Counted from the stretch's first letter, positions 6,671-62,860 are shown. The stretch is 64,000 nt of DNA from Gammaproteobacteria bacterium (GCA_045561235.1 JBJKYB010000002.1:18962-82961), one strand, 5' to 3'. Numbers and translations: made by a program. Notes: generated from the letters alone by a model not told the origin.

Positions 6671-7132
6671 TTACGACCTGTGGTATGGATGATTATTCAT
6701 TATACATATTGATCTATATATTTGCTCCATAAGTATAACCTTAGCTAGTACATGTGGAAACGTTAAATTGGACAACGAAATCACCTGATCTGCTTTTTCT
6801 AGAATAGCCTTAGAAAGCCCATTAGGACCGCCAATAAAAAAATATAAATTTGAAAAACTTTCTTCCCAATGCTTAATTTTTTCTGAGAATTCTATGGAAT
6901 TGCATAATTTTCCAGATTCGTCTAAAGCGATCATTATTGAATTTGGCTTTATCAAAGAAATAGCTTTATTGTATTCCTTTTTATAATTATTTTTATTTGT
7001 TTTCTCAGTCCTGAAATTTATATTTATTAATTCAATTTCAAAAAAGTTCTTAATTAGTTTTTCATATTTCTCTACAAAAAGAGTTTCATATTTTTCCTTC
7101 TTATTACAAATTGTAATAATAAAAATTTTCAT
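6671..7132 (-). CDS. rlmH: 23S rRNA (pseudouridine1915-N3)-methyltransferase, SPOUT family
   Basis: 153 aa; RlmH motifs (LDE.G...S.EF...I..W...G...FFIGGP.GL, C-terminal HPYHR) in the conserved nadD-rsfS-rlmH context. Confidence 0.85.
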   Translation of the reverse strand: MKIFIITICNKKEKYETLFVEKYEKLIKNFFEIELININFRTEKTNKNNYKKEYNKAISLIKPNSIMIALDESGKLCNSIEFSEKIKHWEESFSNLYFFIGGPNGLSKAILEKADQVISLSNLTFPHVLAKVILMEQIYRSICIMNNHPYHRS

Positions 7133-7138
7133 GGATTT

Positions 7139-7519
7139 TTAAGCTGAAGTAATTTCAGACTTACAATTTTTTTCGTCAGACCATAGTTTTTCTAAACCAT
7201 AAAATTCTCTAGTCTCTTGCAGCATTATATTTATTACAATATCATATAAGTCTATTAGAACCCATTCACTATCTATTTCGATACCTTTAATATTTTTACC
7301 GTAACCATTTTTTTTAAGATTTTCGGTAATTTCATTTGATATTGCTTTAATATGTATCGAAGATGTCCCAGTGCCGATTAGAAGTAAGTCAGTGAAATTT
7401 GATTTTTTTTTCATATCTATACAAACTAAATCTAGGATTTTCAAATCTTCAAGTGAATCCATAACTATACTTTTAATTGCACTATATTGTGAATTACTCA
7501 TATTTTTTATAAAGCTCAT
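7139..7519 (-). CDS. rsfS: ribosomal silencing factor RsfS (Iojap family)
   Basis: About 120 aa Iojap-like protein between nadD and rlmH. The annotated start overlaps nadD by 26 bp; the true start may be the internal Met at about 7501. Confidence 0.75.
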   Translation of the reverse strand: MSFIKNMSNSQYSAIKSIVMDSLEDLKILDLVCIDMKKKSNFTDLLLIGTGTSSIHIKAISNEITENLKKNGYGKNIKGIEIDSEWVLIDLYDIVINIMLQETREFYGLEKLWSDEKNCKSEITSA

Positions 7520-8132
7520 TCCTTTTTATATATGACATAATTGATCCAGGAATTTTTTTAATTGGATCTTCGCCTTTGCCTATTATATCTCTAATTAAAC
7601 TTGAGGATACATCTATTGGAGCAATATCATGAAAGAAAATTCCATGCTTTTTATTTTTTATAAAATCAAACTTATTTTTTGAAATTCTATTTTGAATGTA
7701 AATGTCCATACTATTTAATTTATTTAAGTTATATCCAGGCCTGTTCATAACTAAAATATTAACTTTATTTAAAATTTCTTTATAATTATACCAAGATTCT
7801 ATTTTTAGAAACACATCCAATCCTATTATTAAACAAAATTTATCTTTTTTATGTCTTTCTTTGAGAATATTAATTGTATCATATGTATATGACACACCTT
7901 TTCTTCTAATTTCTAGGTCTTCTGCAACAAAATTGTTAGAGTTCGATGCAGCTATTATAGATACCATATTCATTCTGTGTTTAGGATTTGCATAAAACAC
8001 TTTTCCAACTGCTGATTTATATGTTGGAATTAGCTTAATTTCAGATAAATTGAATTGCTCGGAAACCTCAATTAAAGGGTTAATATGTCCAAAATGTATT
8101 GGATCAAAACTTCCACCTAGTACACCTATCAT
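7494..8132 (-). CDS. nadD: nicotinate-nucleotide adenylyltransferase
   Basis: 212 aa; N-terminal (G)GSFDPIH.GH nucleotidyltransferase motif with NadD length and context. Confidence 0.9.
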   Translation of the reverse strand: MIGVLGGSFDPIHFGHINPLIEVSEQFNLSEIKLIPTYKSAVGKVFYANPKHRMNMVSIIAASNSNNFVAEDLEIRRKGVSYTYDTINILKERHKKDKFCLIIGLDVFLKIESWYNYKEILNKVNILVMNRPGYNLNKLNSMDIYIQNRISKNKFDFIKNKKHGIFFHDIAPIDVSSSLIRDIIGKGEDPIKKIPGSIMSYIKRNELYKKYE

Positions 8133-8217
8133 ATAAACTAATTTAAATAATTATTTTTTATTAGTGTACATTATGATAAAACAAAATAAAATAAACAATT
8201 CGAAGAAATAAAAATTT

Positions 8218-9630
8218 ATGAAAGATCATTTAATATTTTTAACTGGAAAGCTAGCGAAGATATCACTTGAGAAAGTTCTATCAGATATTAGCTCCAAAAA
8301 TAAATTCACTTATGAAGTTATGGATATAGGTGTTAATGTTGCTGCTTTGGCAACAATAAATATTATTATTAAAAAAATAAATTTATCAGATGTCACAAAA
8401 GCAACAAAAATTATTATCCCGGGTAGATGCAGAGGTGAAATAAAAGATCTAGAAGCTCATTTTAAGAAAAAATTCATTAGAGGTCCAGAAGAACTAAAAG
8501 ACATTCCAAGCTTTTTAGGTTTACAAGGAAAAGATCTTGATCTAAGTAAATATGATACAAAAATAATTGGAGAAATTACCGAGGCTCCAAATATGTCTAT
8601 TGATGAGATTATTATTCAGGCAAATATTTATAAAGCTGATGGCGCAGATATTATCGATATTGGGTGTTTACCAAGTACAAAGTTTCCACATTTGACCGAA
8701 ACAGTTCAGGAATTAAAAAAACAAAAATTTATGGTTAGTATAGACTCTCTTGATGAAAAAAATTTAATCACAGGAGCTAAAGCTGGTGCAGATTTTTTAC
8801 TAAGCCTTCAAGAAAAATCTATCTGGATAATGGATGAAGTAAATTCTTTACCTGTGATTATTCCAGACTTTCCAAAAGAAGAAAAAAGATTTTACAAGTT
8901 AATTGAAAAATTATTAAAAAATGATAAAGAATTTATTGCTGATTCAATCCTAGAGCCAATAAATTTTGGTTTTACTGATTCCATAGTAAGGTATCATAGA
9001 TTTAGAAAAGAATTTCCGAATGTAGAAATAATGATGGGTATTGGAAATTTAACTGAGCTAACACATGCAGATACAGCTGGAATGAATGCTCTCCTTTTTG
9101 GTATTGCTTCAGAGCTGGAAATTAATTATGCATTATGCACACAGGTAAGTGAACATTGTAATAGGGCCATAATAGAAGGAAATTTTGCTAGAAGAATTAT
9201 GCGTTCCACGAAAACTTATAGTATGCCTCCAAAGGATATTTCTAATAAACTGCTTAGCCTACATGAAAGAAAGCCATTTCCATATTCAACTGAAGAACTT
9301 AAAGAAATGTGGAGTAATGTAAAAGATAAAAATTATAGGATTTATGTAAATCAGGATGGTATACATGTTTTTAATAACAAAAATTTCTATACAGAAAAGG
9401 ATGCTGCAGAGTTTTATCAATATCTTGATATAAAAAATGATGACGGACATGCATATTACCTAGGTATGGAATTAGCAAGAGCTGAAATAGCATTTCAGCT
9501 TGGCAAAAGATACGATCAAGACGAAATACTAAAATGGGGCTGTTCTGTAGAAATATCAGATGATGATATAATGAAATTTAAAACTGCAGGCCACACTATG
9601 AGAAAATTAAAAAAAGAAAAAATGGATTAA
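8218..9630 (+). CDS. dihydropteroate-synthase-like pterin-binding protein, probably tetrahydromethanopterin biosynthesis (MJ0301-type)
   Basis: 470 aa. The central region carries the pterin-binding/DHPS signature (GADIIDIG..PST...) flanked by extra N- and C-terminal domains, as in archaeal/methylotroph H4MPT-linked DHPS-like proteins. It is adjacent to an MfnB-like gene. Confidence 0.55.
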   Translation: MKDHLIFLTGKLAKISLEKVLSDISSKNKFTYEVMDIGVNVAALATINIIIKKINLSDVTKATKIIIPGRCRGEIKDLEAHFKKKFIRGPEELKDIPSFLGLQGKDLDLSKYDTKIIGEITEAPNMSIDEIIIQANIYKADGADIIDIGCLPSTKFPHLTETVQELKKQKFMVSIDSLDEKNLITGAKAGADFLLSLQEKSIWIMDEVNSLPVIIPDFPKEEKRFYKLIEKLLKNDKEFIADSILEPINFGFTDSIVRYHRFRKEFPNVEIMMGIGNLTELTHADTAGMNALLFGIASELEINYALCTQVSEHCNRAIIEGNFARRIMRSTKTYSMPPKDISNKLLSLHERKPFPYSTEELKEMWSNVKDKNYRIYVNQDGIHVFNNKNFYTEKDAAEFYQYLDIKNDDGHAYYLGMELARAEIAFQLGKRYDQDEILKWGCSVEISDDDIMKFKTAGHTMRKLKKEKMD

Positions 9631-9633
9631 ATC

Positions 9634-10203
9634 ATGACCTATGTCAGAGAGACTATAGTTACCACTAAAAATATTGATAACTCTATAAAAGTATCACCAC
9701 TTGGAATTTATATTGAAAATAGTATATTGAAAATAAAACCTTTCAAACCATCAATTTCTCTTGAAAATATCTTAAGAAATAAATCAGGTGTGATAAACTA
9801 TATAGATGATGTAAGAATATTTGCATCATGTATTACAAAAAAAAGTATTAATATTGACTTTGAAAAAGTTAACTTTATTGATTGCTCAAGAATTAATGGT
9901 GCTATATCTCATACAGAATTTGTAGTCGAACATATTGAAGATGATGATAAAAGGCCAACTATAACATGCAAACCTGTTAATGAAGAGGTTCATAAAATAT
10001 TTTATGGGCTAAATAGAGCAAAATCAGCAGTTTTAGAGCTTTGTATTCTCGCATCTAGATTAGGCATAATTGAGGATAAAAAAATTCAAGATGAAATTGA
10101 ATATTTAAAGATCGCAATAGACAAAACAGCTGGTAAAAATGAGCTCGAAGCTTGGACTTGGTTAAATAATTATATAAATACATACAGAGAAAAAATAAAA
10201 TAA
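9634..10203 (+). CDS. hypothetical protein, possibly DUF447-like small protein associated with H4MPT/MFR cofactor gene clusters
   Basis: 189 aa, starting 4 bp after the DHPS-like gene and sharing an ATGA-type junction with the MfnB-like gene. I recognise no strong motif; the assignment is by context and size only. Confidence 0.3.
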   Translation: MTYVRETIVTTKNIDNSIKVSPLGIYIENSILKIKPFKPSISLENILRNKSGVINYIDDVRIFASCITKKSINIDFEKVNFIDCSRINGAISHTEFVVEHIEDDDKRPTITCKPVNEEVHKIFYGLNRAKSAVLELCILASRLGIIEDKKIQDEIEYLKIAIDKTAGKNELEAWTWLNNYINTYREKIK

Positions 10204-10895
10204 TGTTAAAAATACTTGCTAGTATTCAAAATATATCAGAAGCGAAAATTTTAATAAATTCAGATATTGATATTATAGATCTTAAGGATCCATCAAAAGG
10301 CGCTTTGGGTAAATTAAATATTAATGATATTATTAATATAATAAATTTTATTGATAAAAAAAAACTTACAAGTTCTACTATTGGTGATTTACCAAATGAC
10401 AAGAAATTAATTTCTAAAAGTGTAGATGAGTTAAGTATTCTTAATATTGATTTTATTAAAATTGGAGTCTATGAAAGAAGTTATATTAATACAATAGCTG
10501 AAGTTAATTCATGTAAGAAACTTATAGCAGTTTTTTTTGCAGATCTATTCTTGCCTAAAGAAAAAGATTTATTATTCTTAAAAGAATCTGGCTTTTCTGG
10601 TGTAATGATAGATACTTCTAATAAGAAATTAGGAAATCTCTTCGATCATGCGTCTTTCTCTGAAATAAATAGTTTCATATCAAATGCAAAAAAACTTAAT
10701 TTATTGACTGGAATTGCAGGCTCAATTAACGAATCGCATATAAATCAAATTTCAAAAATTAATCCAAACTATATGGGTTTTAGAGGAGCTCTTTGTGAAA
10801 ATAAATTAATTAGAAATTCAACTATATCTGCCAAGAATGTTAAAAATATTATTCATCAAGTTAAAATTTCAAGAGAAATTTCTATGAGCGCTTGA
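10203..10895 (+). CDS. mfnB: MfnB-like (5-formylfuran-3-yl)methyl phosphate synthase family protein (methanofuran/methylofuran biosynthesis)
   Basis: 230 aa. The N-terminus MLKILASIQNISEAKILINSDIDIIDLKDPSKGALGK matches the MJ1099/MfnB family signature (...ADIIDVKNP.EGSLGA). The size also fits. Confidence 0.6.
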   Translation: MLKILASIQNISEAKILINSDIDIIDLKDPSKGALGKLNINDIINIINFIDKKKLTSSTIGDLPNDKKLISKSVDELSILNIDFIKIGVYERSYINTIAEVNSCKKLIAVFFADLFLPKEKDLLFLKESGFSGVMIDTSNKKLGNLFDHASFSEINSFISNAKKLNLLTGIAGSINESHINQISKINPNYMGFRGALCENKLIRNSTISAKNVKNIIHQVKISREISMSA

Positions 10896-12366
10896 ATGAA
10901 TTAAAATTAAAATAAATAGTGCTATATAAAAATACCGTAAAAAGAAAAAAATAAATAATGTCGTATCCATATTTGGACAGAGGCGTTTGACCATTCCTAG
11001 CATATATTTCTTTATTTATATAACCCCTTTCGTTGTATTTTATAAAATCTGCTATTGTTCCATCTGGTGTTATAATGGCAGATATTCCAGTATTTGTTGA
11101 CCTAATAGAATACCTTTGATTTTCCAAAGACCTCATAACTAAGGCATCTAAATGCTGATAAGGAGCAAGCGAATTATCACCAAACCAACCATCGTTTGAG
11201 ACATTTAAAATGAAATCTGTATCTTTATCAATAATAAGTGACTCAAATGAAAATATGCTTTCGTAACAAATTAATGAGTGTGCAGTATAGTTACTAATTT
11301 TTAATGAACTCCTTGTATCACCATTTTTAATGTCATAGATATTTAAACCTAAAGATTCATAAATTCCTCCTAGTGCATTTTTAAAAGGCAGGAATTCACC
11401 AAATGGAACCAAATGCTTTTTATTATAGATGTTGTTAGCTTGAGCAGATACGTTAATAATAGAATTATAGATAAAATCACCATCTTTATAAAATGTTCCT
11501 GTTACTAAAGAAGAAGACTTTGGAATATCCTCAAGTATTTCTTTATAAAAACTATCTTTTAAATCATTATAAATAATTGGTAAAGGTGCTTCTGGCCAAA
11601 GAATAATATTGGGAGAAAATGGTGAAGAGGATAAAGTTAACTCTTTTAGGATTTTCATTCTGTTGATAATTTCTTCGTTACTATAAGAGAGTTTATTTTT
11701 TATATTTGGCTGAATTATAGATATTTTTATTATATCATCAGATTCAGTCGTCCAATTTTTTTTATATATACCAGATAAGCCTATTAAGATAAATGTTGCT
11801 AATGATACAAAAAAAACAGTATCTTTATTTTTAAAAATATTTATAAATATTATTGAGATAATAAAAATAATAAAAGTTAATCCGTGAACACCAAAAACAG
11901 GAAAGAAATTTTCTAAAGGTGTATTAATTGCAGCTTGCCCAAAATTTAACCAAGAATATCCAGTAAATAAGTTTGATCTAAAAATTTCAAAAATAGTAAT
12001 AAGTATTGCCATAACTATTAAGGAATAATTTTTTTTAATATTTATTTTTTTATTCAATAAAGAAGTTATTGCCACTGGCACTATAAAAAAAAATGATAAA
12101 TAAAACGTAAATGTAATTACTAGTAAAATTGTTAAGAAATAATTTACATCCGCATAGTATGTGATTACGTTGTTTAGCCAATAGGTTCCAACAGAAAAAT
12201 AACCTAGAGAAAAAAATAAAGATTTTAATATTGTGGATTTTATTTCCTCAAGATCTATTAACAATAAAAATAAAACAATACTAAAAATTGAAAATATACT
12301 TATATTATAAGGTGAGAAAGATAATGTATATAAACCTCCCAATATAAAGCATGTAAAATATTTCAT
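10882..12366 (-). CDS. lnt: apolipoprotein N-acyltransferase
   Basis: 494 aa with N-terminal multi-TM region plus C-terminal CN-hydrolase domain (WPE..P, VPFGEFLPF), in the conserved ybeZ-ybeY-corC-lnt context. Confidence 0.9.
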   Translation of the reverse strand: MKYFTCFILGGLYTLSFSPYNISIFSIFSIVLFLLLIDLEEIKSTILKSLFFSLGYFSVGTYWLNNVITYYADVNYFLTILLVITFTFYLSFFFIVPVAITSLLNKKINIKKNYSLIVMAILITIFEIFRSNLFTGYSWLNFGQAAINTPLENFFPVFGVHGLTFIIFIISIIFINIFKNKDTVFFVSLATFILIGLSGIYKKNWTTESDDIIKISIIQPNIKNKLSYSNEEIINRMKILKELTLSSSPFSPNIILWPEAPLPIIYNDLKDSFYKEILEDIPKSSSLVTGTFYKDGDFIYNSIINVSAQANNIYNKKHLVPFGEFLPFKNALGGIYESLGLNIYDIKNGDTRSSLKISNYTAHSLICYESIFSFESLIIDKDTDFILNVSNDGWFGDNSLAPYQHLDALVMRSLENQRYSIRSTNTGISAIITPDGTIADFIKYNERGYINKEIYARNGQTPLSKYGYDIIYFFLFTVFLYSTIYFNFNSFKRS

Positions 12367-50445: not shown

Positions 50446-50919
50446 TTAATAATATCTATTTGGTAATGAGGAGTGGTGCATAACGATTTTCAAATCACCA
50501 TTTGACAGTCTTTTATAGACCCAGCTTTTATCTACTTTTACAATATCGCCGTTCTTGTTACTTAAAGTCACCCATCCCATCCATATTGCAATATCATTTT
50601 CTATAAAGATATCTGAAGTTTTGGAGTCAAATTTACTCCACGAGTTAATTCCAAAGCCATTATCCATTGGATATTTTGAATTATTTCCAACGAAATAAGA
50701 TAGAGCTCCCTCCAAACTCGAGCGAAATGTTTGACTACTCCCACTCATGGTCGGTTTAAATAAAATTGGACCGAGTTCAAAAGCATATAATTCCTGTAAA
50801 ATTTTCTTTGCAATTATAGTAGCTTCTTCAATACCTTTTTCATCATAAGTCTTAGAAATTAAAATTAAGCCATCGCCCCAAGCATTGCGTGCTTTATTCA
50901 TATCTTTTTTATTAATCAT
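50446..50919 (-). CDS. hypothetical protein, possibly NTF2-like (SnoaL/DUF4440-type) fold
   Basis: 157 aa soluble protein ending in a ...HHSS-like motif; no catalytic motif recognised. It is co-oriented 96 bp downstream of fprA. Confidence 0.3.
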   Translation of the reverse strand: MINKKDMNKARNAWGDGLILISKTYDEKGIEEATIIAKKILQELYAFELGPILFKPTMSGSSQTFRSSLEGALSYFVGNNSKYPMDNGFGINSWSKFDSKTSDIFIENDIAIWMGWVTLSNKNGDIVKVDKSWVYKRLSNGDLKIVMHHSSLPNRYY

Positions 50920-52458: not shown

Positions 52459-52764
52459 TTATAAACCTAATGCTTCTCTTTTGTCTTCTGCACCTTCAAG
52501 AGGTTCAAGAGTTTCAGTAATGTTTGGAGTTTCTTGCGATCTTTCTTCATTTATATCTACCCAATGTTCTTGACCATCAGGAAGATCATCCTCTTCAAAG
52601 ATTGCTTCTACTGGACATTCCGGAACACACGCGCTGCAATCAATACATACATCTGGATTTATATATAACATTTCGTCATCAACGTGAAATGCTTCAACAG
52701 GACAAACCGAAACACAATCGGTAAATCTACATCCTCTACAATTATCTGTCACTACTGTTGTCAT
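52459..52764 (-). CDS. fdxA: 7Fe ferredoxin ([3Fe-4S][4Fe-4S], Azotobacter FdI type)
   Basis: 101 aa; MTTVVTDNCRGCRFTDCVSVCPVEAFH...CIDCSACVPECPVEAIF, near-colinear with A. vinelandii FdI. Confidence 0.93.
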   Translation of the reverse strand: MTTVVTDNCRGCRFTDCVSVCPVEAFHVDDEMLYINPDVCIDCSACVPECPVEAIFEEDDLPDGQEHWVDINEERSQETPNITETLEPLEGAEDKREALGL

Positions 52765-52802: not shown

Positions 52803-53609
52803 CTACGCAGAATAAACTAAAAGTTCTCCGCGATTCATTTCAATAGCATCTCCACTCCACCTATGGAATGAACCATTGATAATTTTATCCTCAATATTAA
52901 TTTTTGTATTTTCTTTTAAATACTTAAAGAAAATTTTTAAATATGTTGGGTTATATAAACAATCATATGAAAAAGTTGGTAATATTTCTAAATTGTCTAT
53001 ACATATAATAGAACCCCTTTTCATTCCTGCTCCAGTTCTGATACCCATTTCACCAAATATTAAAATGGTACCTGATACCATATTAACGCCCGCAAAATCT
53101 CCACAATTTCCACCAACTACCATAGTAGCGCCTGCCATAGCATGACCTAATTCATTTTTGACATTACCCTCAATAATAATTTCTCCCCCGGAAACACCTT
53201 TTGACGCACCTCTATATGCACTTGCAACGCAATGTCCAGCGTTTCCAGAAATATGAATTCTTCCCCCTGACATTTCTGGTGCAATCCAATCACCAGCATT
53301 ACCATTTACGTTTATAGATCCACCAGACATTGCTGAGCCTAAATGGGCACCCACATCTCCTTCGATATGCATCTCCCCTTCAGACATATTTGCTCCCAAA
53401 TATTTTATTCGGTTCATGTCTCCTTCGACTTGCAATAAATCTAATTTACTCTTTGAGACAGAAAAGAAATCAGCTATATTCACTTCTCTATTACCATGAA
53501 AAATTTTAGTTTTTTCAATTTCTTTTGCCTTTAAATTATTAATAACTCCAGGAGTTATACTCTCAGCTTCTAAAGGAACATCTGGTTTTGTGTGTAATTT
53601 TAATTTCAT
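52803..53609 (-). CDS. fhcC: formylmethanofuran dehydrogenase subunit C-like protein (FwdC/FhcC; GltB C-terminal GXGXG beta-helix domain)
   Basis: 268 aa of repeated G.GNAG.....M.GG.I.I.G motifs, typical of FwdC and glutamate synthase alpha-subunit domain 4. Confidence 0.85.
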   Translation of the reverse strand: MKLKLHTKPDVPLEAESITPGVINNLKAKEIEKTKIFHGNREVNIADFFSVSKSKLDLLQVEGDMNRIKYLGANMSEGEMHIEGDVGAHLGSAMSGGSINVNGNAGDWIAPEMSGGRIHISGNAGHCVASAYRGASKGVSGGEIIIEGNVKNELGHAMAGATMVVGGNCGDFAGVNMVSGTILIFGEMGIRTGAGMKRGSIICIDNLEILPTFSYDCLYNPTYLKIFFKYLKENTKINIEDKIINGSFHRWSGDAIEMNRGELLVYSA

Positions 53610-53623
53610 CGTACTAGTTTGAT

Positions 53624-54538
53624 TTAATCTACTAAATCCTTTAAATAAAATTTATATTTACCAAGTTTTCCGCCAAAATTTCCAGCAGTTATTTGAATAA
53701 CTCCTTCTTTGGCTGCAGCATGCATTCCTACTTTCATAGCTTTTGCAACTGCATTCTCATCTGCACCGTCTACGACAATTTCGTAACAAGTATGAACGCT
53801 TTCAGGCACAGCCGAATCTTTAACTACTCCTTTTAAAGTAGGACAATAAATATGGTTTGTCGAGGCAACTAGATCTTTGTATTTTGACCCAACTTTACTA
53901 CCACTTCTAACTACTCCTTTAGGAAATGGCATTATAACATTTTCAACTCTCTTCATAACTTTTACAGCATCGTAACAAGCATCTAGACATTCTTTTACAT
54001 TATCACCAAGAATATAAAAATTTCCACCGCCAACAGATTCTCTTACACCAAAGTTTTCGTGTATTATAAATTCTCCGTCAAAAACTGGAATTCTCCAGTA
54101 TCTTTTATTTTGAATTTTTTTCCCTATTTGATGACCATCACCAAAGTATCTTAATGCTCCACCAACATTTACAGTGTCTTCTGAATCGTAACCACTAAAA
54201 CATGCCGTTGTTGGACATGTCATTACACATTGTCCTATTCTTTCAATTAATCTTTTACCAAGACTCGCTTTATCCATTGTAAAAACTAAAATACTATAAC
54301 CTGGTCTGCCATCAGGGGTTTCCTCGGGAGTAAGCTTCATATCGATACCTGCTTCGCATTTGCAACCTATTACAGAAGTTGCCATTCCAGTCATGGCTCT
54401 TGCAGCACCTTCAGCCCAATAATCATTTTCTGCAGTGATAATTACTTTTGCCGACCACATTGAAAAAGCTTCTGCATATGTATCAACAATTTCTGTATTA
54501 TTAATTTTCATAAATGCTGTTCTTTTTCCTTGTTTCAA
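53624..54538 (-). CDS. fhcD: formylmethanofuran--tetrahydromethanopterin N-formyltransferase (Ftr/FhcD)
   Basis: The N-terminus ...MKINNTEIVDTYAEAFSMWSAKVIITAENDYWAEGAARAMTGMATSVIGCKCEAGID is colinear with archaeal Ftr (MEINGVEIEDTFAEAF...). The likely true start is the Met at about 54511 (295 aa), which avoids a 38-bp overlap with fhcA. Confidence 0.85.
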   Translation of the reverse strand: MKQGKRTAFMKINNTEIVDTYAEAFSMWSAKVIITAENDYWAEGAARAMTGMATSVIGCKCEAGIDMKLTPEETPDGRPGYSILVFTMDKASLGKRLIERIGQCVMTCPTTACFSGYDSEDTVNVGGALRYFGDGHQIGKKIQNKRYWRIPVFDGEFIIHENFGVRESVGGGNFYILGDNVKECLDACYDAVKVMKRVENVIMPFPKGVVRSGSKVGSKYKDLVASTNHIYCPTLKGVVKDSAVPESVHTCYEIVVDGADENAVAKAMKVGMHAAAKEGVIQITAGNFGGKLGKYKFYLKDLVD

Positions 54539-56168
54539 TTACTTTACCTGTGCCATGTAAATATTCATCCTGAACTGCATAATTACTATAGGAAACAGAA
54601 TAAAAATCATCAAAGAAAGGTTTTATAACTTTTTCTATTTCTCTATCAAAATCAGGTGCCACTCGTAAAACTTTTTTGTCAGTATAGTCACTGACAAATT
54701 CATGATCAGCGATCAACAATTGCCCAGCCTTCATAACGTATCTTGGAGCATTAAACATTTCTTCTTTATCCTCAAGCATGTCATATATTGTTATGTCTGC
54801 GTCCGCACCAACACCTAGATGACCTTTATCTTTTAATCCTAAACACTTTGCAGGGCCTGCCCTTGTAATGATACAAATTTCATTTAATGTATATTCCCTT
54901 TTCAACTCTCCCAAAATCGTACTATTCATTGCTTTTTGATTAACACTTTTCATTGCTACTTTTCTAAATTCATAATCCATTAATAATTTAATTACCAATG
55001 GATAATTTGCAAAAGAACCGCCATTTGGATGATCGGTAGACAAAACTATTCTCCAAGGATCTTTTGATAACAAGAATATTTCTAAACCAATAGCCCATTG
55101 AAGTGCATGAGTGTAAATCATACCCTGGTAATCGAAAGGTAAAATTCCACAGCCACTCTCACATTCAGTATCAGCATTCACCCATTTTTCTTTTTTATAA
55201 CCTCTGAGTAAATATGTTAAAGGCGCGTCAGCAGTCATAAACATTGCTTTACCAAACATTACTTGCCCAACATCGCAGGTTATATTTTGGTGGTCGTTTA
55301 CATAATCAGTAATTTCTTTTGAGGCTGATTTTGGTGGCTTGCCAAGTTCACCCGCGTAACTATTGAATTGAATATGAGCAACATGCAGTCTTCTATCCCC
55401 AGCAGTCTTCATACTTTCTAAGGTTGTATCAAAGTTTCCACTATGACCAAGATTATTACAATGAATATGCGGAGGATGAGGTAATCCTAGCTCATGTACA
55501 GCATCAATAAATGCTTCGATCACTTTTCTTGGTGCAATATCTGTCGCCTTACTATCTTCGTCGATATCTTTTACATTCAGATTTTTGTGACCTTTCCAGG
55601 GTTCATCTCCTCCTGGATTTACTAATTTCACAGTGTACGCTTTTGTTGCATTTAACCACCATGCAACTGCCTCTTTGAACTCAGCAAAACGCCCCTCTGC
55701 AATTAAACTTTGTAAAAAAAGATTATTTCCAAGTAAAACATAAAAACCGTTGTCAATGATTGGCGTGTCGTACATTTCTTCCAGCGCATGCCTTGCAGTC
55801 AATGGCGGGACAGCTGCTTCCATTGCAGTTGTGTATCCTAAAGTTGCATATCTATATCCAGTTGCGAAAGTTGAAGGAACAATTCCTCCAGTACCAGATT
55901 GTGTGTATGGGGTTTTAAAGTGCGGATCTAATCTATGATCCTCGGGCATTAATTTTCTTGCTAGATTAACTTTTGGTCCAGTAATATGACAATGAATATC
56001 TACACCGCCAGGCATAACTGCCATTCCTTTTGCATCGATAACCTTTGCCGCTTTGGAAACCTTTGAGACAATTTTTCCATCCTTTACGAGGATGTCACAA
56101 ACTTTTCCTTCGATTTCATTTGTAGGATCAAAAACTATGCCGTTTATGATACGAAATTCATTACTCAT
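54501..56168 (-). CDS. fhcA: formylmethanofuran dehydrogenase subunit A-like metal-dependent amidohydrolase (FwdA/FhcA)
   Basis: 555 aa amidohydrolase-superfamily protein (GGVDIHCH metal-binding motif near the N-terminus) with FwdA length and operon context. Confidence 0.85.
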   Translation of the reverse strand: MSNEFRIINGIVFDPTNEIEGKVCDILVKDGKIVSKVSKAAKVIDAKGMAVMPGGVDIHCHITGPKVNLARKLMPEDHRLDPHFKTPYTQSGTGGIVPSTFATGYRYATLGYTTAMEAAVPPLTARHALEEMYDTPIIDNGFYVLLGNNLFLQSLIAEGRFAEFKEAVAWWLNATKAYTVKLVNPGGDEPWKGHKNLNVKDIDEDSKATDIAPRKVIEAFIDAVHELGLPHPPHIHCNNLGHSGNFDTTLESMKTAGDRRLHVAHIQFNSYAGELGKPPKSASKEITDYVNDHQNITCDVGQVMFGKAMFMTADAPLTYLLRGYKKEKWVNADTECESGCGILPFDYQGMIYTHALQWAIGLEIFLLSKDPWRIVLSTDHPNGGSFANYPLVIKLLMDYEFRKVAMKSVNQKAMNSTILGELKREYTLNEICIITRAGPAKCLGLKDKGHLGVGADADITIYDMLEDKEEMFNAPRYVMKAGQLLIADHEFVSDYTDKKVLRVAPDFDREIEKVIKPFFDDFYSVSYSNYAVQDEYLHGTGKVIETRKKNSIYEN

Positions 56169-56220
56169 AATTAATTCAAACCTTTTTTAATTTTTATATT
56201 TATTAATTAGCTCAATGTAC

Positions 56221-57591
56221 TTACATATATTTTTTAGTTGCATAAGGTCTATTTGCTTTTTTAGACAACTCATTAACTTTTTTTCTAAGTTTTGTTAGCA
56301 CCTCTAGATCACTAGGAAATGGTGAATCAAATGCAGGTCTTAAACTAATTGGAACATCATCCATTCTATAAACTGTTCCACCGGTGTTAATTCCATAAGT
56401 ACTGGTTTGAATTGAAATATGCGCAGCTTCACTTGTCGGTGTGTTTTTTGTATCTATTGATATTAATTTACATTTGTCACTTGTAATATGATCAATTGCA
56501 GGCTTTGGAAAATTCGCAACTGGATCACTTGCAATTATTAAAGCTGCATCAGCTTCTTTTCTTGTTAAAGTATCAACAGTTGTAAATTCACCAGGATTAA
56601 ACCTTGGGTGCCCTCTGCTAAAATTAACTCCAAACGGATACCCAGTTTGCCAAGAAACAACGTTATCGGCACCTGTTACGTTACCATGTCCTCTTGCAGG
56701 TTTTGCTACAAAATGCGTAAATTCATTTAGATCTGTTGCTAAGGCCATTAATGCTCCAGAGTTAAAGTGTCTTCCTCTAGTCATTGTTAATCCCATTCCA
56801 AAAAATATAACTCCATAAGTACAGTTTTTCATTTTATTAAAAAGATCTTCAGCAACTTCTTTTTCGATACCACAAATTTCTTTACAATTATCTGGAATAG
56901 GAACACCTTTACATGCAGCCCTGAGTATCCATAAAAACTCAAAATCTTTTCCAGGTTTTACTTGTAAAAATATATCAGCTACTCCTGCTGTTTTTGTATG
57001 TCTCACATCACAAATTACAACTGTACGATCATCTTTTCCATTTGGAGTAAACATACCTTCTGGTGTAACAGCATATCTTGCGAAATGTCTTGGGTGCGCT
57101 TCAGCTGGATTACCACCCCAATACATTACAAAGTCAGCTCTATTTTTTACTTCTCCTAAAGTCATGCTGGGTTCACCAACACCTTGGAAAGCCATGCCGG
57201 ATGGACCGTGACATACAGAAGTTGTTGTATCAATAGTTCCACCACAATCGTCCATGATTGGAGCACATTGTCTTTGAGCTTCACATATTGTGTCACTCAT
57301 ACCATATAATATTGGAAACTTTGCATCCATTAACACTTTAGCCGCTTCATCAATTGCATCATCTAAAGGAACTTCTTTTCCATCTATTCTTGCTATTGGC
57401 TTATCTTCTATAACATGATTTAAAAACCAAGCCTTTCCAAGTATGCAAGCATCTTTAGCTTTTGTGATAACTTTTTTGTCCATATCAACAGTCAAAGTAA
57501 TATCATCACAACAGCATCCACAAAAAGTACAAGTTGCGTTCTCTACAATTTTCTCATTTACAATTTTATTATCTTTACTTACTGCACTCAT
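56221..57591 (-). CDS. fhcB: formylmethanofuran dehydrogenase subunit B-like molybdopterin-oxidoreductase-fold protein (FwdB/FhcB)
   Basis: 456 aa. An N-terminal Cys cluster (CTFCGCCCDD...C) resembles the MopB [4Fe-4S] motif. The internal TTTSVCHGPSG resembles the Cys/SeCys active-site motif (VUHGPS of FDH-H). Confidence 0.8.
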   Translation of the reverse strand: MSAVSKDNKIVNEKIVENATCTFCGCCCDDITLTVDMDKKVITKAKDACILGKAWFLNHVIEDKPIARIDGKEVPLDDAIDEAAKVLMDAKFPILYGMSDTICEAQRQCAPIMDDCGGTIDTTTSVCHGPSGMAFQGVGEPSMTLGEVKNRADFVMYWGGNPAEAHPRHFARYAVTPEGMFTPNGKDDRTVVICDVRHTKTAGVADIFLQVKPGKDFEFLWILRAACKGVPIPDNCKEICGIEKEVAEDLFNKMKNCTYGVIFFGMGLTMTRGRHFNSGALMALATDLNEFTHFVAKPARGHGNVTGADNVVSWQTGYPFGVNFSRGHPRFNPGEFTTVDTLTRKEADAALIIASDPVANFPKPAIDHITSDKCKLISIDTKNTPTSEAAHISIQTSTYGINTGGTVYRMDDVPISLRPAFDSPFPSDLEVLTKLRKKVNELSKKANRPYATKKYM

Positions 57592-57620
57592 AATATCTCC
57601 TTGATTGTCTCCTTAACTCA

Positions 57621-58013
57621 TTAAGCAACTTCAGTTTTAGGCGGTAAAGCAGTTTTCTTTTTTACGCCTTTTTTGACAAACTCTATATCTATTGTCATTC
57701 CTTTTGAGGCCGGCATGCCCGATGCACATGTTTCACCATCAAACAAACAACTTGATGGCGGGCCATATGGAATGAATGCATAACCTACAGGAATTTTTCC
57801 TTCTCTTAGAACTTTTAGTTGAACTTCAGTTTCACCGATGTGGTTACTAATTTTGACTATGTCAGCTGTTTCTAGTCCTAGCTCAGCTGCATCTTCGAAA
57901 CTAATTTCAAGCGTAGTTGTGACTCTAATGTACTCTTCCTTAAGCTTACCCTTATTCAGCCCTACTCCTTGTTTGGCGGAGCGGCCTGGTATAAGTATTA
58001 GTTGTCCTTTCAT
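57621..58013 (-). CDS. formylmethanofuran dehydrogenase subunit D-like protein (molybdopterin dinucleotide-binding / MopB C-terminal beta-barrel domain)
   Basis: 130 aa; colinear with archaeal FwdD (G.......G....V.I......G...V...V.......F.P.GP........D..T...GMP.SKG......E). It is the first gene of the operon, 29 bp upstream of fhcB. Confidence 0.65.
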   Translation of the reverse strand: MKGQLILIPGRSAKQGVGLNKGKLKEEYIRVTTTLEISFEDAAELGLETADIVKISNHIGETEVQLKVLREGKIPVGYAFIPYGPPSSCLFDGETCASGMPASKGMTIDIEFVKKGVKKKTALPPKTEVA

Positions 58014-62137: not shown

Positions 62138-62860
62138 TTAATATTTTTTATAAATACCTGTAAAAATATCAATATCTGATTCCACAAATATCTCATTTTC
62201 ATCAAATAAAAATATTTTTATGCCATCCTTTATAATTTTTTCTCTAGATAAAATATTATTCTGAAAGGTGTAATTTATTTCACTAAATCCATTTAGGTAA
62301 TGCCATGCATAACCTTGTAAAATATATGCATTATCGTTTTGCTTCTTAAATACAAGTTCAATATTTTTTTGTGGGTCAACCTTATTTTTTCTCCAATCCA
62401 CAGAGTCAATATGTCTGTATCTTATAAATTTTTTATTTATTTTTTTTTCCACTGAAATAAAGTCAGAAAAAATGAAACCTTCAATGTCTCCATGAGATAC
62501 TAAGTACCATTTTCCAAATCTATAATTATTTACAATCTCAACTTTATCGGAGTTCAAAAGCCTCAATCGAACACTAACGTTGGGCTTAAGAAAAAAAACT
62601 TTTTTTATTAAAACTTTATCATTTTTTTTAATTTTCTTTAATACTTCGCTATTTTTTGAGCTTATTAATGGGATATCTCTTAAATTTATATTATTTTTAT
62701 TAACGATACCGTGCGAATTAACTTCTTGATGATATGTAATCATATCTTTTGGTATATTTTCAAAGCAACTTTCATATATATTTTTACAGTTATATAAGTT
62801 TGCATGCGAGGTTAAGGTTACTAAGAACAATGTCAGAACCATTATGAGCAATCTAATCAT
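62138..62860 (-). CDS. hypothetical secreted protein (signal peptide; possible bacterial SH3-like domain)
   Basis: 240 aa; the N-terminal MIRLLIMVLTLFLVTLTSHA looks like a Sec signal; the rest is Lys/Asn-rich with no motif recognised. Confidence 0.3.
   Translation of the reverse strand: MIRLLIMVLTLFLVTLTSHANLYNCKNIYESCFENIPKDMITYHQEVNSHGIVNKNNINLRDIPLISSKNSEVLKKIKKNDKVLIKKVFFLKPNVSVRLRLLNSDKVEIVNNYRFGKWYLVSHGDIEGFIFSDFISVEKKINKKFIRYRHIDSVDWRKNKVDPQKNIELVFKKQNDNAYILQGYAWHYLNGFSEINYTFQNNILSREKIIKDGIKIFLFDENEIFVESDIDIFTGIYKKY

Follow-up and report, generated by a model that had tools for sequence, protein, structure and literature searches.

Gene organization of the locus

We analyzed a stretch of 64,000 nucleotides from a Gammaproteobacteria bacterium (GCA_045561235.1, JBJKYB010000002.1:18962-82961), hereafter the window, which holds a compact trio of genes related to the archaeal-type biosynthesis of carriers for one-carbon (C1) units. 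The listing of open reading frames (ORFs) in the window gives three ORFs on the plus strand, of 470, 189 and 230 amino acids, which encode a dihydropteroate synthase (DHPS)-like protein, a DUF447 protein and an MfnB-family protein (proteins 1 to 3; Table 1). Their span is exactly that given by an earlier reading of this DNA, here called the original prediction, which had described three co-oriented, abutting genes beside nadD-rsfS-rlmH and had proposed an archaeal-type C1 cofactor trio. That proposal is supported by searches with hidden Markov models, by folds and by synteny. The first two ORFs are separated by a gap of 3 nt, and the stop of the second overlaps the start of the third by 1 nt. 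This spacing is a signature of translational coupling, from which we judge the trio to be a single operon.

The DHPS-like protein

Protein 1 has an alpha/beta DUF6513 domain (amino acids 3-91), a TIM barrel of the DHPS fold (about 115-375), a DUF4346 domain (383-435), and a conserved tail modeled with low confidence. DUF6513 (PF20123, 70.2 bits) and PterinBD-DUF4346 (PF14251, 30.5 bits) both score above the Pfam cutoff, the homologues have the same architecture, and the motif GADIIDIG occupies residues 142-149, as expected from the earlier description of a pterin-binding protein with extra domains around a GADIIDIG core. In NCBIfam it matches TIGR00284, the "dihydropteroate synthase-like protein" of the archaeal MJ0301 type (E 3.2e-54, amino acids 115-436 on model positions 153-495). 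Sequence searches of the PDB with protein 1 returned nothing meaningful and a profile search only a marginal match to Sul3 (E 0.037), so that fold prediction was needed to recognize the DHPS fold. The AlphaFold2 model has a mean predicted local distance difference test (pLDDT) score of 75, reaching 83-98 over most of amino acids 121-240 and mostly above 85 in the N-terminal half of the barrel. Among the top Foldseek matches of the model in the PDB, almost all are DHPS or Sul proteins, with target-normalized TM-scores of 0.55-0.71 across some 260 columns and identities of 11-18%.

Is protein 1 then simply a FolP? A grouping with folate DHPS was the test that the original prediction had set for itself, and no such grouping was found. 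Protein 1 reaches only 16.3 bits on Pterin_bind (PF00809), under the gathering cutoff of 25.5. When it was compared by hhalign with a genuine FolP (Methylotuvimicrobium, L047:8543-9490, which scores 282 bits on Pterin_bind), just 86 columns were aligned, with 25% probability. The diphosphate loop GGESTRPG of FolP is replaced in protein 1 by GCLPSTKFPH (loop DIGCLPSTKFPH). Furthermore, in Methylococcales a canonical folP adjoins the DHPS-like gene in divergent orientation, so the two coexist as distinct genes. On the strength of these comparisons and of the fold model, protein 1 is best described as a DHPS-fold protein of a family separate from FolP. It is strongly conserved, with 121 near-invariant residues across 80 homologues and a nonsynonymous divergence (dN) from its relatives of 0.07-0.12, and few genes of the region are better conserved.

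The DUF447 protein

The original prediction had called protein 2 DUF447-like, which was right, and had also described it as an ORF without any recognizable motif and perhaps new to these pathways, which was wrong. It is a full DUF447 protein, with both DUF447_N (PF04289, 81.9 bits) and DUF447_C (PF20766, 55.9 bits) above cutoff, and a module found in well over 70 loci regularly has DUF447 in its middle. It matches the Rhodopirellula baltica structure 3B5M with E 1e-14. The AlphaFold2 model (pLDDT 97.7) consists of a split barrel of the flavin mononucleotide (FMN) type followed by a C-terminal helical domain, with TM-scores of 0.88 to 3B5M, 0.78-0.80 to the FMN-bound 2NR4 and 2IML, and 0.59 to the FMN-bound 2PTF. 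The next structural neighbours after the DUF447 proteins are split-barrel (free) flavin reductases. This fold predicts that protein 2 may bind FMN.

What could such a protein do in this module? Literature searches on DUF447, MJ0301 and methanopterin biosynthesis turned up no functional assignment of DUF447. An exhaustive phmmer search of 1.84 billion representatives returned 741 clusters at E <= 1e-3, and the best 150 of these include nine proteins of 500-550 amino acids. All six that were tested (P0390, P0433, P0446, P0468, P0482 and P0496, from clusters at 50% identity) are fusions of DUF447 with a GHMP-type domain. This domain is the synthase of beta-ribofuranosylaminobenzene 5'-phosphate (beta-RFAP), MptG, in four of the four submitted to NCBIfam, two of them above the TIGR00144 cutoff. 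A single further cluster (P0370) fuses DUF447 to MfnB. These fusions can be taken as Rosetta-stone evidence for a role in the pathway. Together with the FMN-type fold and with the constant place of the gene between its DHPS-like neighbour and mfnB, they suggest that DUF447 probably performs a flavin-dependent step beside RFAP synthase or the DHPS-like condensation.

The MfnB-family protein

Protein 3 belongs to the MfnB family of 4-HFC-P synthases (4-HFC-P being the phosphate of 4-(hydroxymethyl)-2-furancarboxaldehyde), as had been claimed for the 230-aa protein. It scores 185.9 bits on 4HFCP_synth (PF04476, cutoff 22.4), over amino acids 4-216 and positions 1-227 of the 228 of the model, and is homologous over its full length to MJ1099 (PDB 4RC1, E 1e-19). 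The catalytic residues of MfnB reportedly include Asp25, Lys27, Lys85 and Asp151, in work attributed to Wang et al. in Biochemistry in 2015. The original prediction had staked its case on the catalytic lysines, and these are kept: D26, K28, K86, D137 and K141 of protein 3 correspond to D25, K27, K85, D151 and K155 of MJ1099, and all five are invariant in 73 aligned sequences, MJ1099 included. K155 has been described as catalytic in MfnB (PMC11365854). As an aside, the MfnB reading frame of six Methylobacter loci (L054, L061, L065, L071, L072 and L080) runs to about 355-440 codons, compared with 230 here, which suggests a C-terminal extension or fusion.

Conservation, synteny and selection

A scan of a genome collection returned 80 gammaproteobacterial loci, and in about 70 of them the DHPS-like gene, DUF447 and mfnB are adjacent and co-oriented. 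These loci belong to Methylococcaceae, Thiotrichales, Ca. Porisulfidus and many marine metagenome-assembled genomes (MAGs). The closest relatives are MAGs from Tara Oceans and Saanich Inlet and a GORG single-cell genome, with DHPS-like proteins 80-99% identical to protein 1. The whole neighbourhood from nadD through the trio to lnt is common to eight loci (L001-L007, L028). It is also kept on three long-read contigs from ENA (L081-L083; 1,103,785-1,109,269 bp, DHPS-like protein 84% identical), which come from independent samples. Such nearly equal lengths, 1.10-1.11 Mb in each of three samples, suggest a complete genome of about 1.1 Mb for this relative, among the smallest of free-living Gammaproteobacteria.

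Against four relatives (L001, L002, L004 and L005) the trio has dN values of 0.07-0.26, equal to or below those of nadD, rsfS, rlmH, lnt and ybeY, while synonymous divergence (dS) is saturated. The three genes thus experience purifying selection no weaker than that on their housekeeping neighbours. With orthologues in the same order and with the same flanks in all 11 loci named above (L001-L007, L028, L081-L083), they are real genes and not chance ORFs. The insertion point recurs, in a looser arrangement, in MAGs of Ca. Porisulfidus and "Chromatiales" (L020, L025, L048 and L070), which indicates an old position and not a recent transfer. Some sequences show damage: the DHPS-like ORF is split in L028, and many genes of L081-L083 are split by apparent long-read frameshifts. 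Because the frameshifts in L028 and L081-L082 also affect many housekeeping genes there, we attribute them to assembly errors.

In Methylococcales the module reads afpA-DHPSL-DUF447-MfnB (DHPSL being the DHPS-like gene), with afpA directly upstream; afpA is absent from the trio locus in the window lineage. An AT-biased scan of metagenome contigs for the Fae motif (L089-L208) revealed many AT-rich fae islands and three further AT-rich groups (24-34% GC; e.g., L174, L152 and L205) in which afpA-DHPSL-DUF447-MfnB stands beside mptG-mtdB-mch-orf7-citG-fae. Their DHPS-like proteins are just 43-49% identical to the copy in the window, so they represent other lineages. All classifiable groups with such an AT-rich fae island carry their own trio, and five short contigs (L186, L189, L112, L092 and L200) allowed no assignment to a lineage. 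C1 metabolism linked to tetrahydromethanopterin (H4MPT) seems to be common among AT-rich, probably streamlined, plankton. We also observed that the fae islands of these groups are compact, of the form mptG-mtdB-(ATP-grasp)-mch-orf7-citG-fae, in at least three distinct marine or environmental lineages.

A partner operon of the Fwd type

The original prediction had pointed to an Fwd/Fhc-like operon 40 kb away. Such an operon is present in the window, 42-47 kb from the trio (52803-58013), and encodes fwdDBA-ftr-fwdC; it is of the Fwd type and not of the Fhc type. Subunit B matches archaeal FwdB (5T5I_B) over its full length with E 4e-111, and FhcB of Methylobacterium extorquens (6S6Y_B) with only 6.5e-11. 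Its [4Fe-4S] cysteines C21, C24, C28 and C49, the pair C127-H128, and R300 are invariant in 120 homologues. In M. extorquens, FhcB has no Fe-S domain, Cys118, His119 and Arg288 of FwdB are not conserved (the cysteine is replaced by Ser62), and Fhc lacks FwdD (PMC6926001). The presence of the [4Fe-4S] domain, of the Cys-His pair, of the arginine and of FwdD led us to reject the M. extorquens Fhc type for this operon. A review had it that Proteobacteria lack fwdD (Chistoserdova 2016; PMC5020050), and bacterial FwdB homologues as such had been noted before (PMC10100899).

The order fwdD-B-A-ftr-C-fdx-reductase recurs in two relatives (L084 and L085, with a reductase of about 460-470 amino acids), where the operon adjoins fae-mch-mtdB. 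The ferredoxin and the FprA-like reductase that follow fwdC are a probable electron outlet of the Fwd-type enzyme. The same two larger-genome relatives carry, directly after the fwd-fdx-reductase operon, a second and divergent paralogue of subunit B, which shares about 28-29% identity with the first (L084 13884-15350, L085 13714-15362), and then a second subunit A; the streamlined window lineage has one set here.

Just downstream of the fwd-fdx-reductase genes in the window lies a minus-strand ORF of 157 amino acids (50446-50919), which has no Pfam match and reaches 170 bits on the NCBIfam "metal-independent carbonic anhydrase" model, below its cutoff of 350. A link of this ORF to the release of CO2 by the Fwd enzyme is possible. 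Further along, another minus-strand ORF, of 240 amino acids (62138-62860), lies between gloB and a rotamase/glutaredoxin region; it matches no Pfam or NCBIfam model and its position is kept in L086-L088.

Flanks of the trio and the nadD intergenic block

Upstream of the trio, nadD, rsfS and rlmH are followed by yhdP on the same strand. The downstream flank consists of lnt, corC, ybeY, phoH and miaB, all on the minus strand, and the 3' end of the third ORF overlaps the convergent lnt by 14 nt. The trio has a GC content of 0.26-0.29, the same as its flanks. Since the nadD...lnt position is moreover common to distant relatives, we rejected the idea of a horizontal-transfer island. No tRNA or Rfam family was found in the trio region, and no intrinsic terminator in 7900-11200.

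Between nadD and the trio lie 85 bp, of which 32-35 nt form an invariant block. The 8 aligned sequences do not differ in it, and 10 related loci match its pattern exactly, despite the saturation of synonymous sites; its core TAGTGTACATTATG occurs also in the more distant L007. The block occurs once in the window. It includes promoter-like hexamers for the trio, TGTACA (-35-like, 8165-8170) and TAAAAT (-10-like, 8187-8192), and one for nadD, CATAAT, on the other strand. We considered a riboswitch or RNA leader and rejected it, as there was no Rfam match upstream of the trio even at E <= 1 and no stable fold (z-score +0.5). From its conservation and hexamers, the block is probably a shared, overlapping divergent promoter/operator.

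Table 1. Features of the window discussed in the text
Feature	Coordinates	Strand	Basis or position
DHPS-like protein (archaeal MJ0301/MptH-like)	8218-9630	+	Pfam, NCBIfam, AlphaFold2/Foldseek, conservation
DUF447 protein	9634-10203	+	PF04289 and PF20766, PDB 3B5M, AlphaFold2 model, fusions
MfnB-family 4-HFC-P synthase (Orf22)	10203-10895	+	PF04476, PDB 4RC1, catalytic residues
Invariant block TAGTGTACATTATG(N)AAAACAAAATAAAATA	8162-8196	+	Between divergent nadD and trio
nadD	7494-8132	-	Upstream flank
rsfS	7139-7519	-	Upstream flank
rlmH	6671-7132	-	Upstream flank
fwdD-like	57621-58013	-	Separate gene, first in the order
fwdB-type subunit B	56221-57591	-	TIGR03129, 490 bits
fwdA/fhcA amidohydrolase (subunit A)	54501-56168	-	TIGR03121, 685 bits
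ftr/fhcD formyltransferase	53624-54538	-	TIGR03119, 412 bits
fwdC/fhcC (subunit C)	52803-53609	-	TIGR03122, 251 bits
FdxA-type ferredoxin	52459-52764	-	Directly downstream of fwdC
FprA-like flavoprotein reductase, 473 aa	51016-52437	-	Downstream of ferredoxin

Discussion

Our analysis leads us to regard the trio, with considerable confidence, as the gammaproteobacterial form of the "archaeal-like" cofactor module of methylotrophs, supplying the H4MPT and methylofuran carriers for C1 oxidation. How would the three proteins contribute? Protein 1, in its predicted role of dihydropterin-CH2 transferase of dephospho-H4MPT synthesis, would join 6-hydroxymethyl-dihydropterin diphosphate to beta-RFAP instead of p-aminobenzoate, the step that would commit the pterin to (dephospho)tetrahydromethanopterin. 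Protein 2 would most likely act on RFAP, or on what protein 1 produces, in a flavin-dependent step in the synthesis of H4MPT or possibly of methylofuran. Protein 3 would condense one glyceraldehyde-3-phosphate molecule with another into 4-HFC-P, the furan head of methylofuran. With the carriers derived from the trio, the FwdDBA-Ftr-FwdC enzyme would then pass the formyl group of H4MPT on to methylofuran. The likeness of subunit B to FwdB makes it probable that this group is subsequently oxidized to CO2, with electrons passing to the adjacent ferredoxin and reductase, and suggests direct oxidation of formyl-methylofuran and not hydrolysis to formate.

Several points weigh against this reading and limit how far it can be pressed. 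The TIGR00284 score of protein 1 is 184.3 bits, below the curated cutoff of 256.65. Protein 3 scores 99 bits on NF002575 (cutoff 304) and 97 bits on NF002573 (cutoff 341), both equivalogs for (5-formylfuran-3-yl)methyl phosphate synthase, and its best NCBIfam model is NF002576 ("hypothetical protein"), at 191 bits with a cutoff of 297. Given these scores, proteins 1 and 3 should be placed in their families at the family level and not at the equivalog level; the missed cutoffs of protein 3 fit a divergent bacterial subgroup better than exclusion from the MfnB family. We presume, from gene order, that proteins 1 and 2 correspond to Orf19 and Orf20 of M. extorquens. The literature found reports no enzyme activity for Orf19/Orf20 homologues, and the activities given here for the trio are predictions. 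Finally, the original prediction had called for a search for the remaining mfn/mpt genes, and fae, mtdB, mch, mptG, afpA/dmrB and mfnC-F were not found in the window or in the 10 kb past either end; nor could the remaining pathway genes be tied to the window lineage from metagenome contigs.

Other explanations must be weighed against these data. The DHPS fold of protein 1, the resemblance of GADIIDIG to the beta2 region of FolP, and the weak match to Sul3 could suggest a divergent FolP in a cluster that serves folate synthesis. The low Pterin_bind score, the short alignment with a genuine FolP, the exchanged diphosphate loop, and the canonical folP beside the DHPS-like gene in Methylococcales all speak against it, as do the strong match to TIGR00284 and the constant linkage to DUF447 and MfnB, and we give it very little credence. 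No more probable is that the trio is a decaying, non-functional remnant in a shrinking genome. Such a remnant would agree with the failure to see the rest of the pathway in the window and its 10-kb extensions, and with the split DHPS-like ORF of L028. Yet intact ORFs are found in the window as well as in over 10 related loci, the DHPS-like gene is among the most conserved of the region, the promoter block shows no variation, the Fwd/Ftr operon is undamaged, and the frameshifts of L028 and L081-L082 are not particular to the module.

The remaining alternatives concern the role of DUF447 and the direction of the pathway. DUF447 might act with MfnB in the methylofuran branch, or be a general flavin reductase or chaperone, instead of serving methanopterin synthesis. 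Its overlap of 1 nt with the start codon of mfnB, the DUF447-MfnB fusion cluster, and the free flavin reductases as its nearest structural neighbours outside DUF447 would fit this. We consider this unlikely though worth keeping in mind, since fusions to beta-RFAP synthase are far commoner (the nine 500-550 aa clusters among the best 150 of 741, six of six tested being positive) than the one fusion to MfnB, and since archaeal methanofuran synthesis has been described as complete with MfnA-F, without DUF447 (PMC8141765). Somewhat less plausible still is that the module and the Fwd-type enzyme run reductively, in the reduction or assimilation of CO2 or formate as in methanogens, or serve formaldehyde detoxification alone. 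Subunit B does keep every residue of a CO2-reducing FwdB, the genes of FwdD, of a ferredoxin and of a reductase stand with it, and a carbonic-anhydrase-like gene follows. But the organism appears to be aerobic and planktonic (an alternative oxidase and a photolyase are encoded nearby, and it occurs in Tara surface metagenomes), the operon stands in relatives beside fae-mch-mtdB, an oxidative formaldehyde module, and the characterized bacterial systems all run oxidatively (PMC6926001). Hence, we favor a biosynthetic module for H4MPT and methylofuran that supports C1 oxidation.

The gene set is already known and widely conserved, and the finding is in this sense largely ordinary. For annotation, it settles that three genes which pipelines label "dihydropteroate synthase", "DUF447" or "hypothetical protein" form a single module for methanopterin/methylofuran cofactors. 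What is of additional interest is the presence of this module in a planktonic genome of about 1.1 Mb, the Fwd-type partner with FwdD, ferredoxin and reductase, and the lead given by the DUF447 fusions. The fusions and the kept gene order make DUF447 a concrete and testable candidate for an orphan step of the methanopterin pathway, which is also a target for inhibitors of methanogens; the value of this lead lies in the family, not in this particular copy. DUF447 could be the missing FMN-dependent enzyme of H4MPT synthesis, e.g., for the orphan step in which the ribofuranosyl ring of H2pterin-CH2-RFAP is reduced to give the ribityl form, a tentative idea to which we give somewhat less than an even chance. 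If it were true, the genome of this lineage, at about 1.1 Mb, would offer a near-minimal gene set from which to read off the remaining orphan steps of H4MPT and methylofuran synthesis.

The ecological implications may be broader. An abundant, uncultured, free-living marine gammaproteobacterium keeps a costly H4MPT/methylofuran system that planktonic Methylophilaceae discarded during streamlining. Since the module was kept in a small-genome lineage in spite of this precedent, C1 oxidation by way of H4MPT and methylofuran is probably at the core of how this organism lives. The original prediction had found the module notable for such a small, AT-rich genome. This stands in so far as streamlined OM43 lost the H4MPT/methylofuran genes (PMC5020050), and is weakened by streamlined TMED127 (PMC12542740) and by the three AT-rich metagenomic groups, all of which carry the module.

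Relation to known systems

The archaeal MJ0301-type enzyme (TIGR00284; H2pterin-CH2-RFAP synthase, "MptH") shares with protein 1 the DHPS-fold barrel and a C-terminal DUF4346-like region, whereas the first 150 or so positions of the model are unmatched because DUF6513 stands there in the bacterial protein. The structural-genomics proteins of the DUF447 family (R. baltica 3B5M, Methanosarcina mazei MM1853 2NR4, Archaeoglobus fulgidus 2IML and MTH_863 2PTF) have the same two-domain fold as protein 2, and the three archaeal ones were solved with bound FMN; identity to protein 2 is just 19-26%, and none has an assigned reaction. MfnB of Methanocaldococcus jannaschii (MJ1099, 4RC1) resembles protein 3 in size (242 residues in the PDB chain, 230 here) and in its five catalytic residues, but the two sequences are highly diverged and protein 3 lacks the capping-loop residue R217 (a gap in 64 of 73 bacterial sequences). 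Its product leads to methanofuran, whereas that of protein 3 would feed methylofuran.

The partner operon combines features of two systems. With Fhc of M. extorquens (6S6Y) it shares the A, C and Ftr (FhcD) subunits and an Ftr whose gene is part of the operon, as it is in bacterial fhc clusters; it differs in its FwdB-like subunit B, with [4Fe-4S] domain, Cys-His pair and arginine, and in having FwdD. In these features of subunit B and in FwdD it is of the type of archaeal Fwd (5T5I).

The closest parallel for the trio itself is the alphaproteobacterial cluster of M. extorquens and Methylosinus, which reads orf19-orf20-afpA-orf21-orf22 (PMC3615186). Orf22 is MfnB, Orf21 is MfnE and Orf9 is MfnF (PMC8141765), so that the original prediction was off by one in taking orf21 as the counterpart of MfnB. 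The same three families are found in that cluster in the same relative order and orientation, linked with fhc/fwd, fae, mch and mtdB (PMC3615186, PMC8141765). In the window, the cluster lacks afpA (a dmrB-like flavoprotein gene) and orf21 (mfnE), and the trio sits between nadD and lnt instead of lying in a methylotrophy island as in M. extorquens and Methylosinus. The alphaproteobacterial TMED127, which carries the same module in a streamlined genome, differs from the window in its gene organization.

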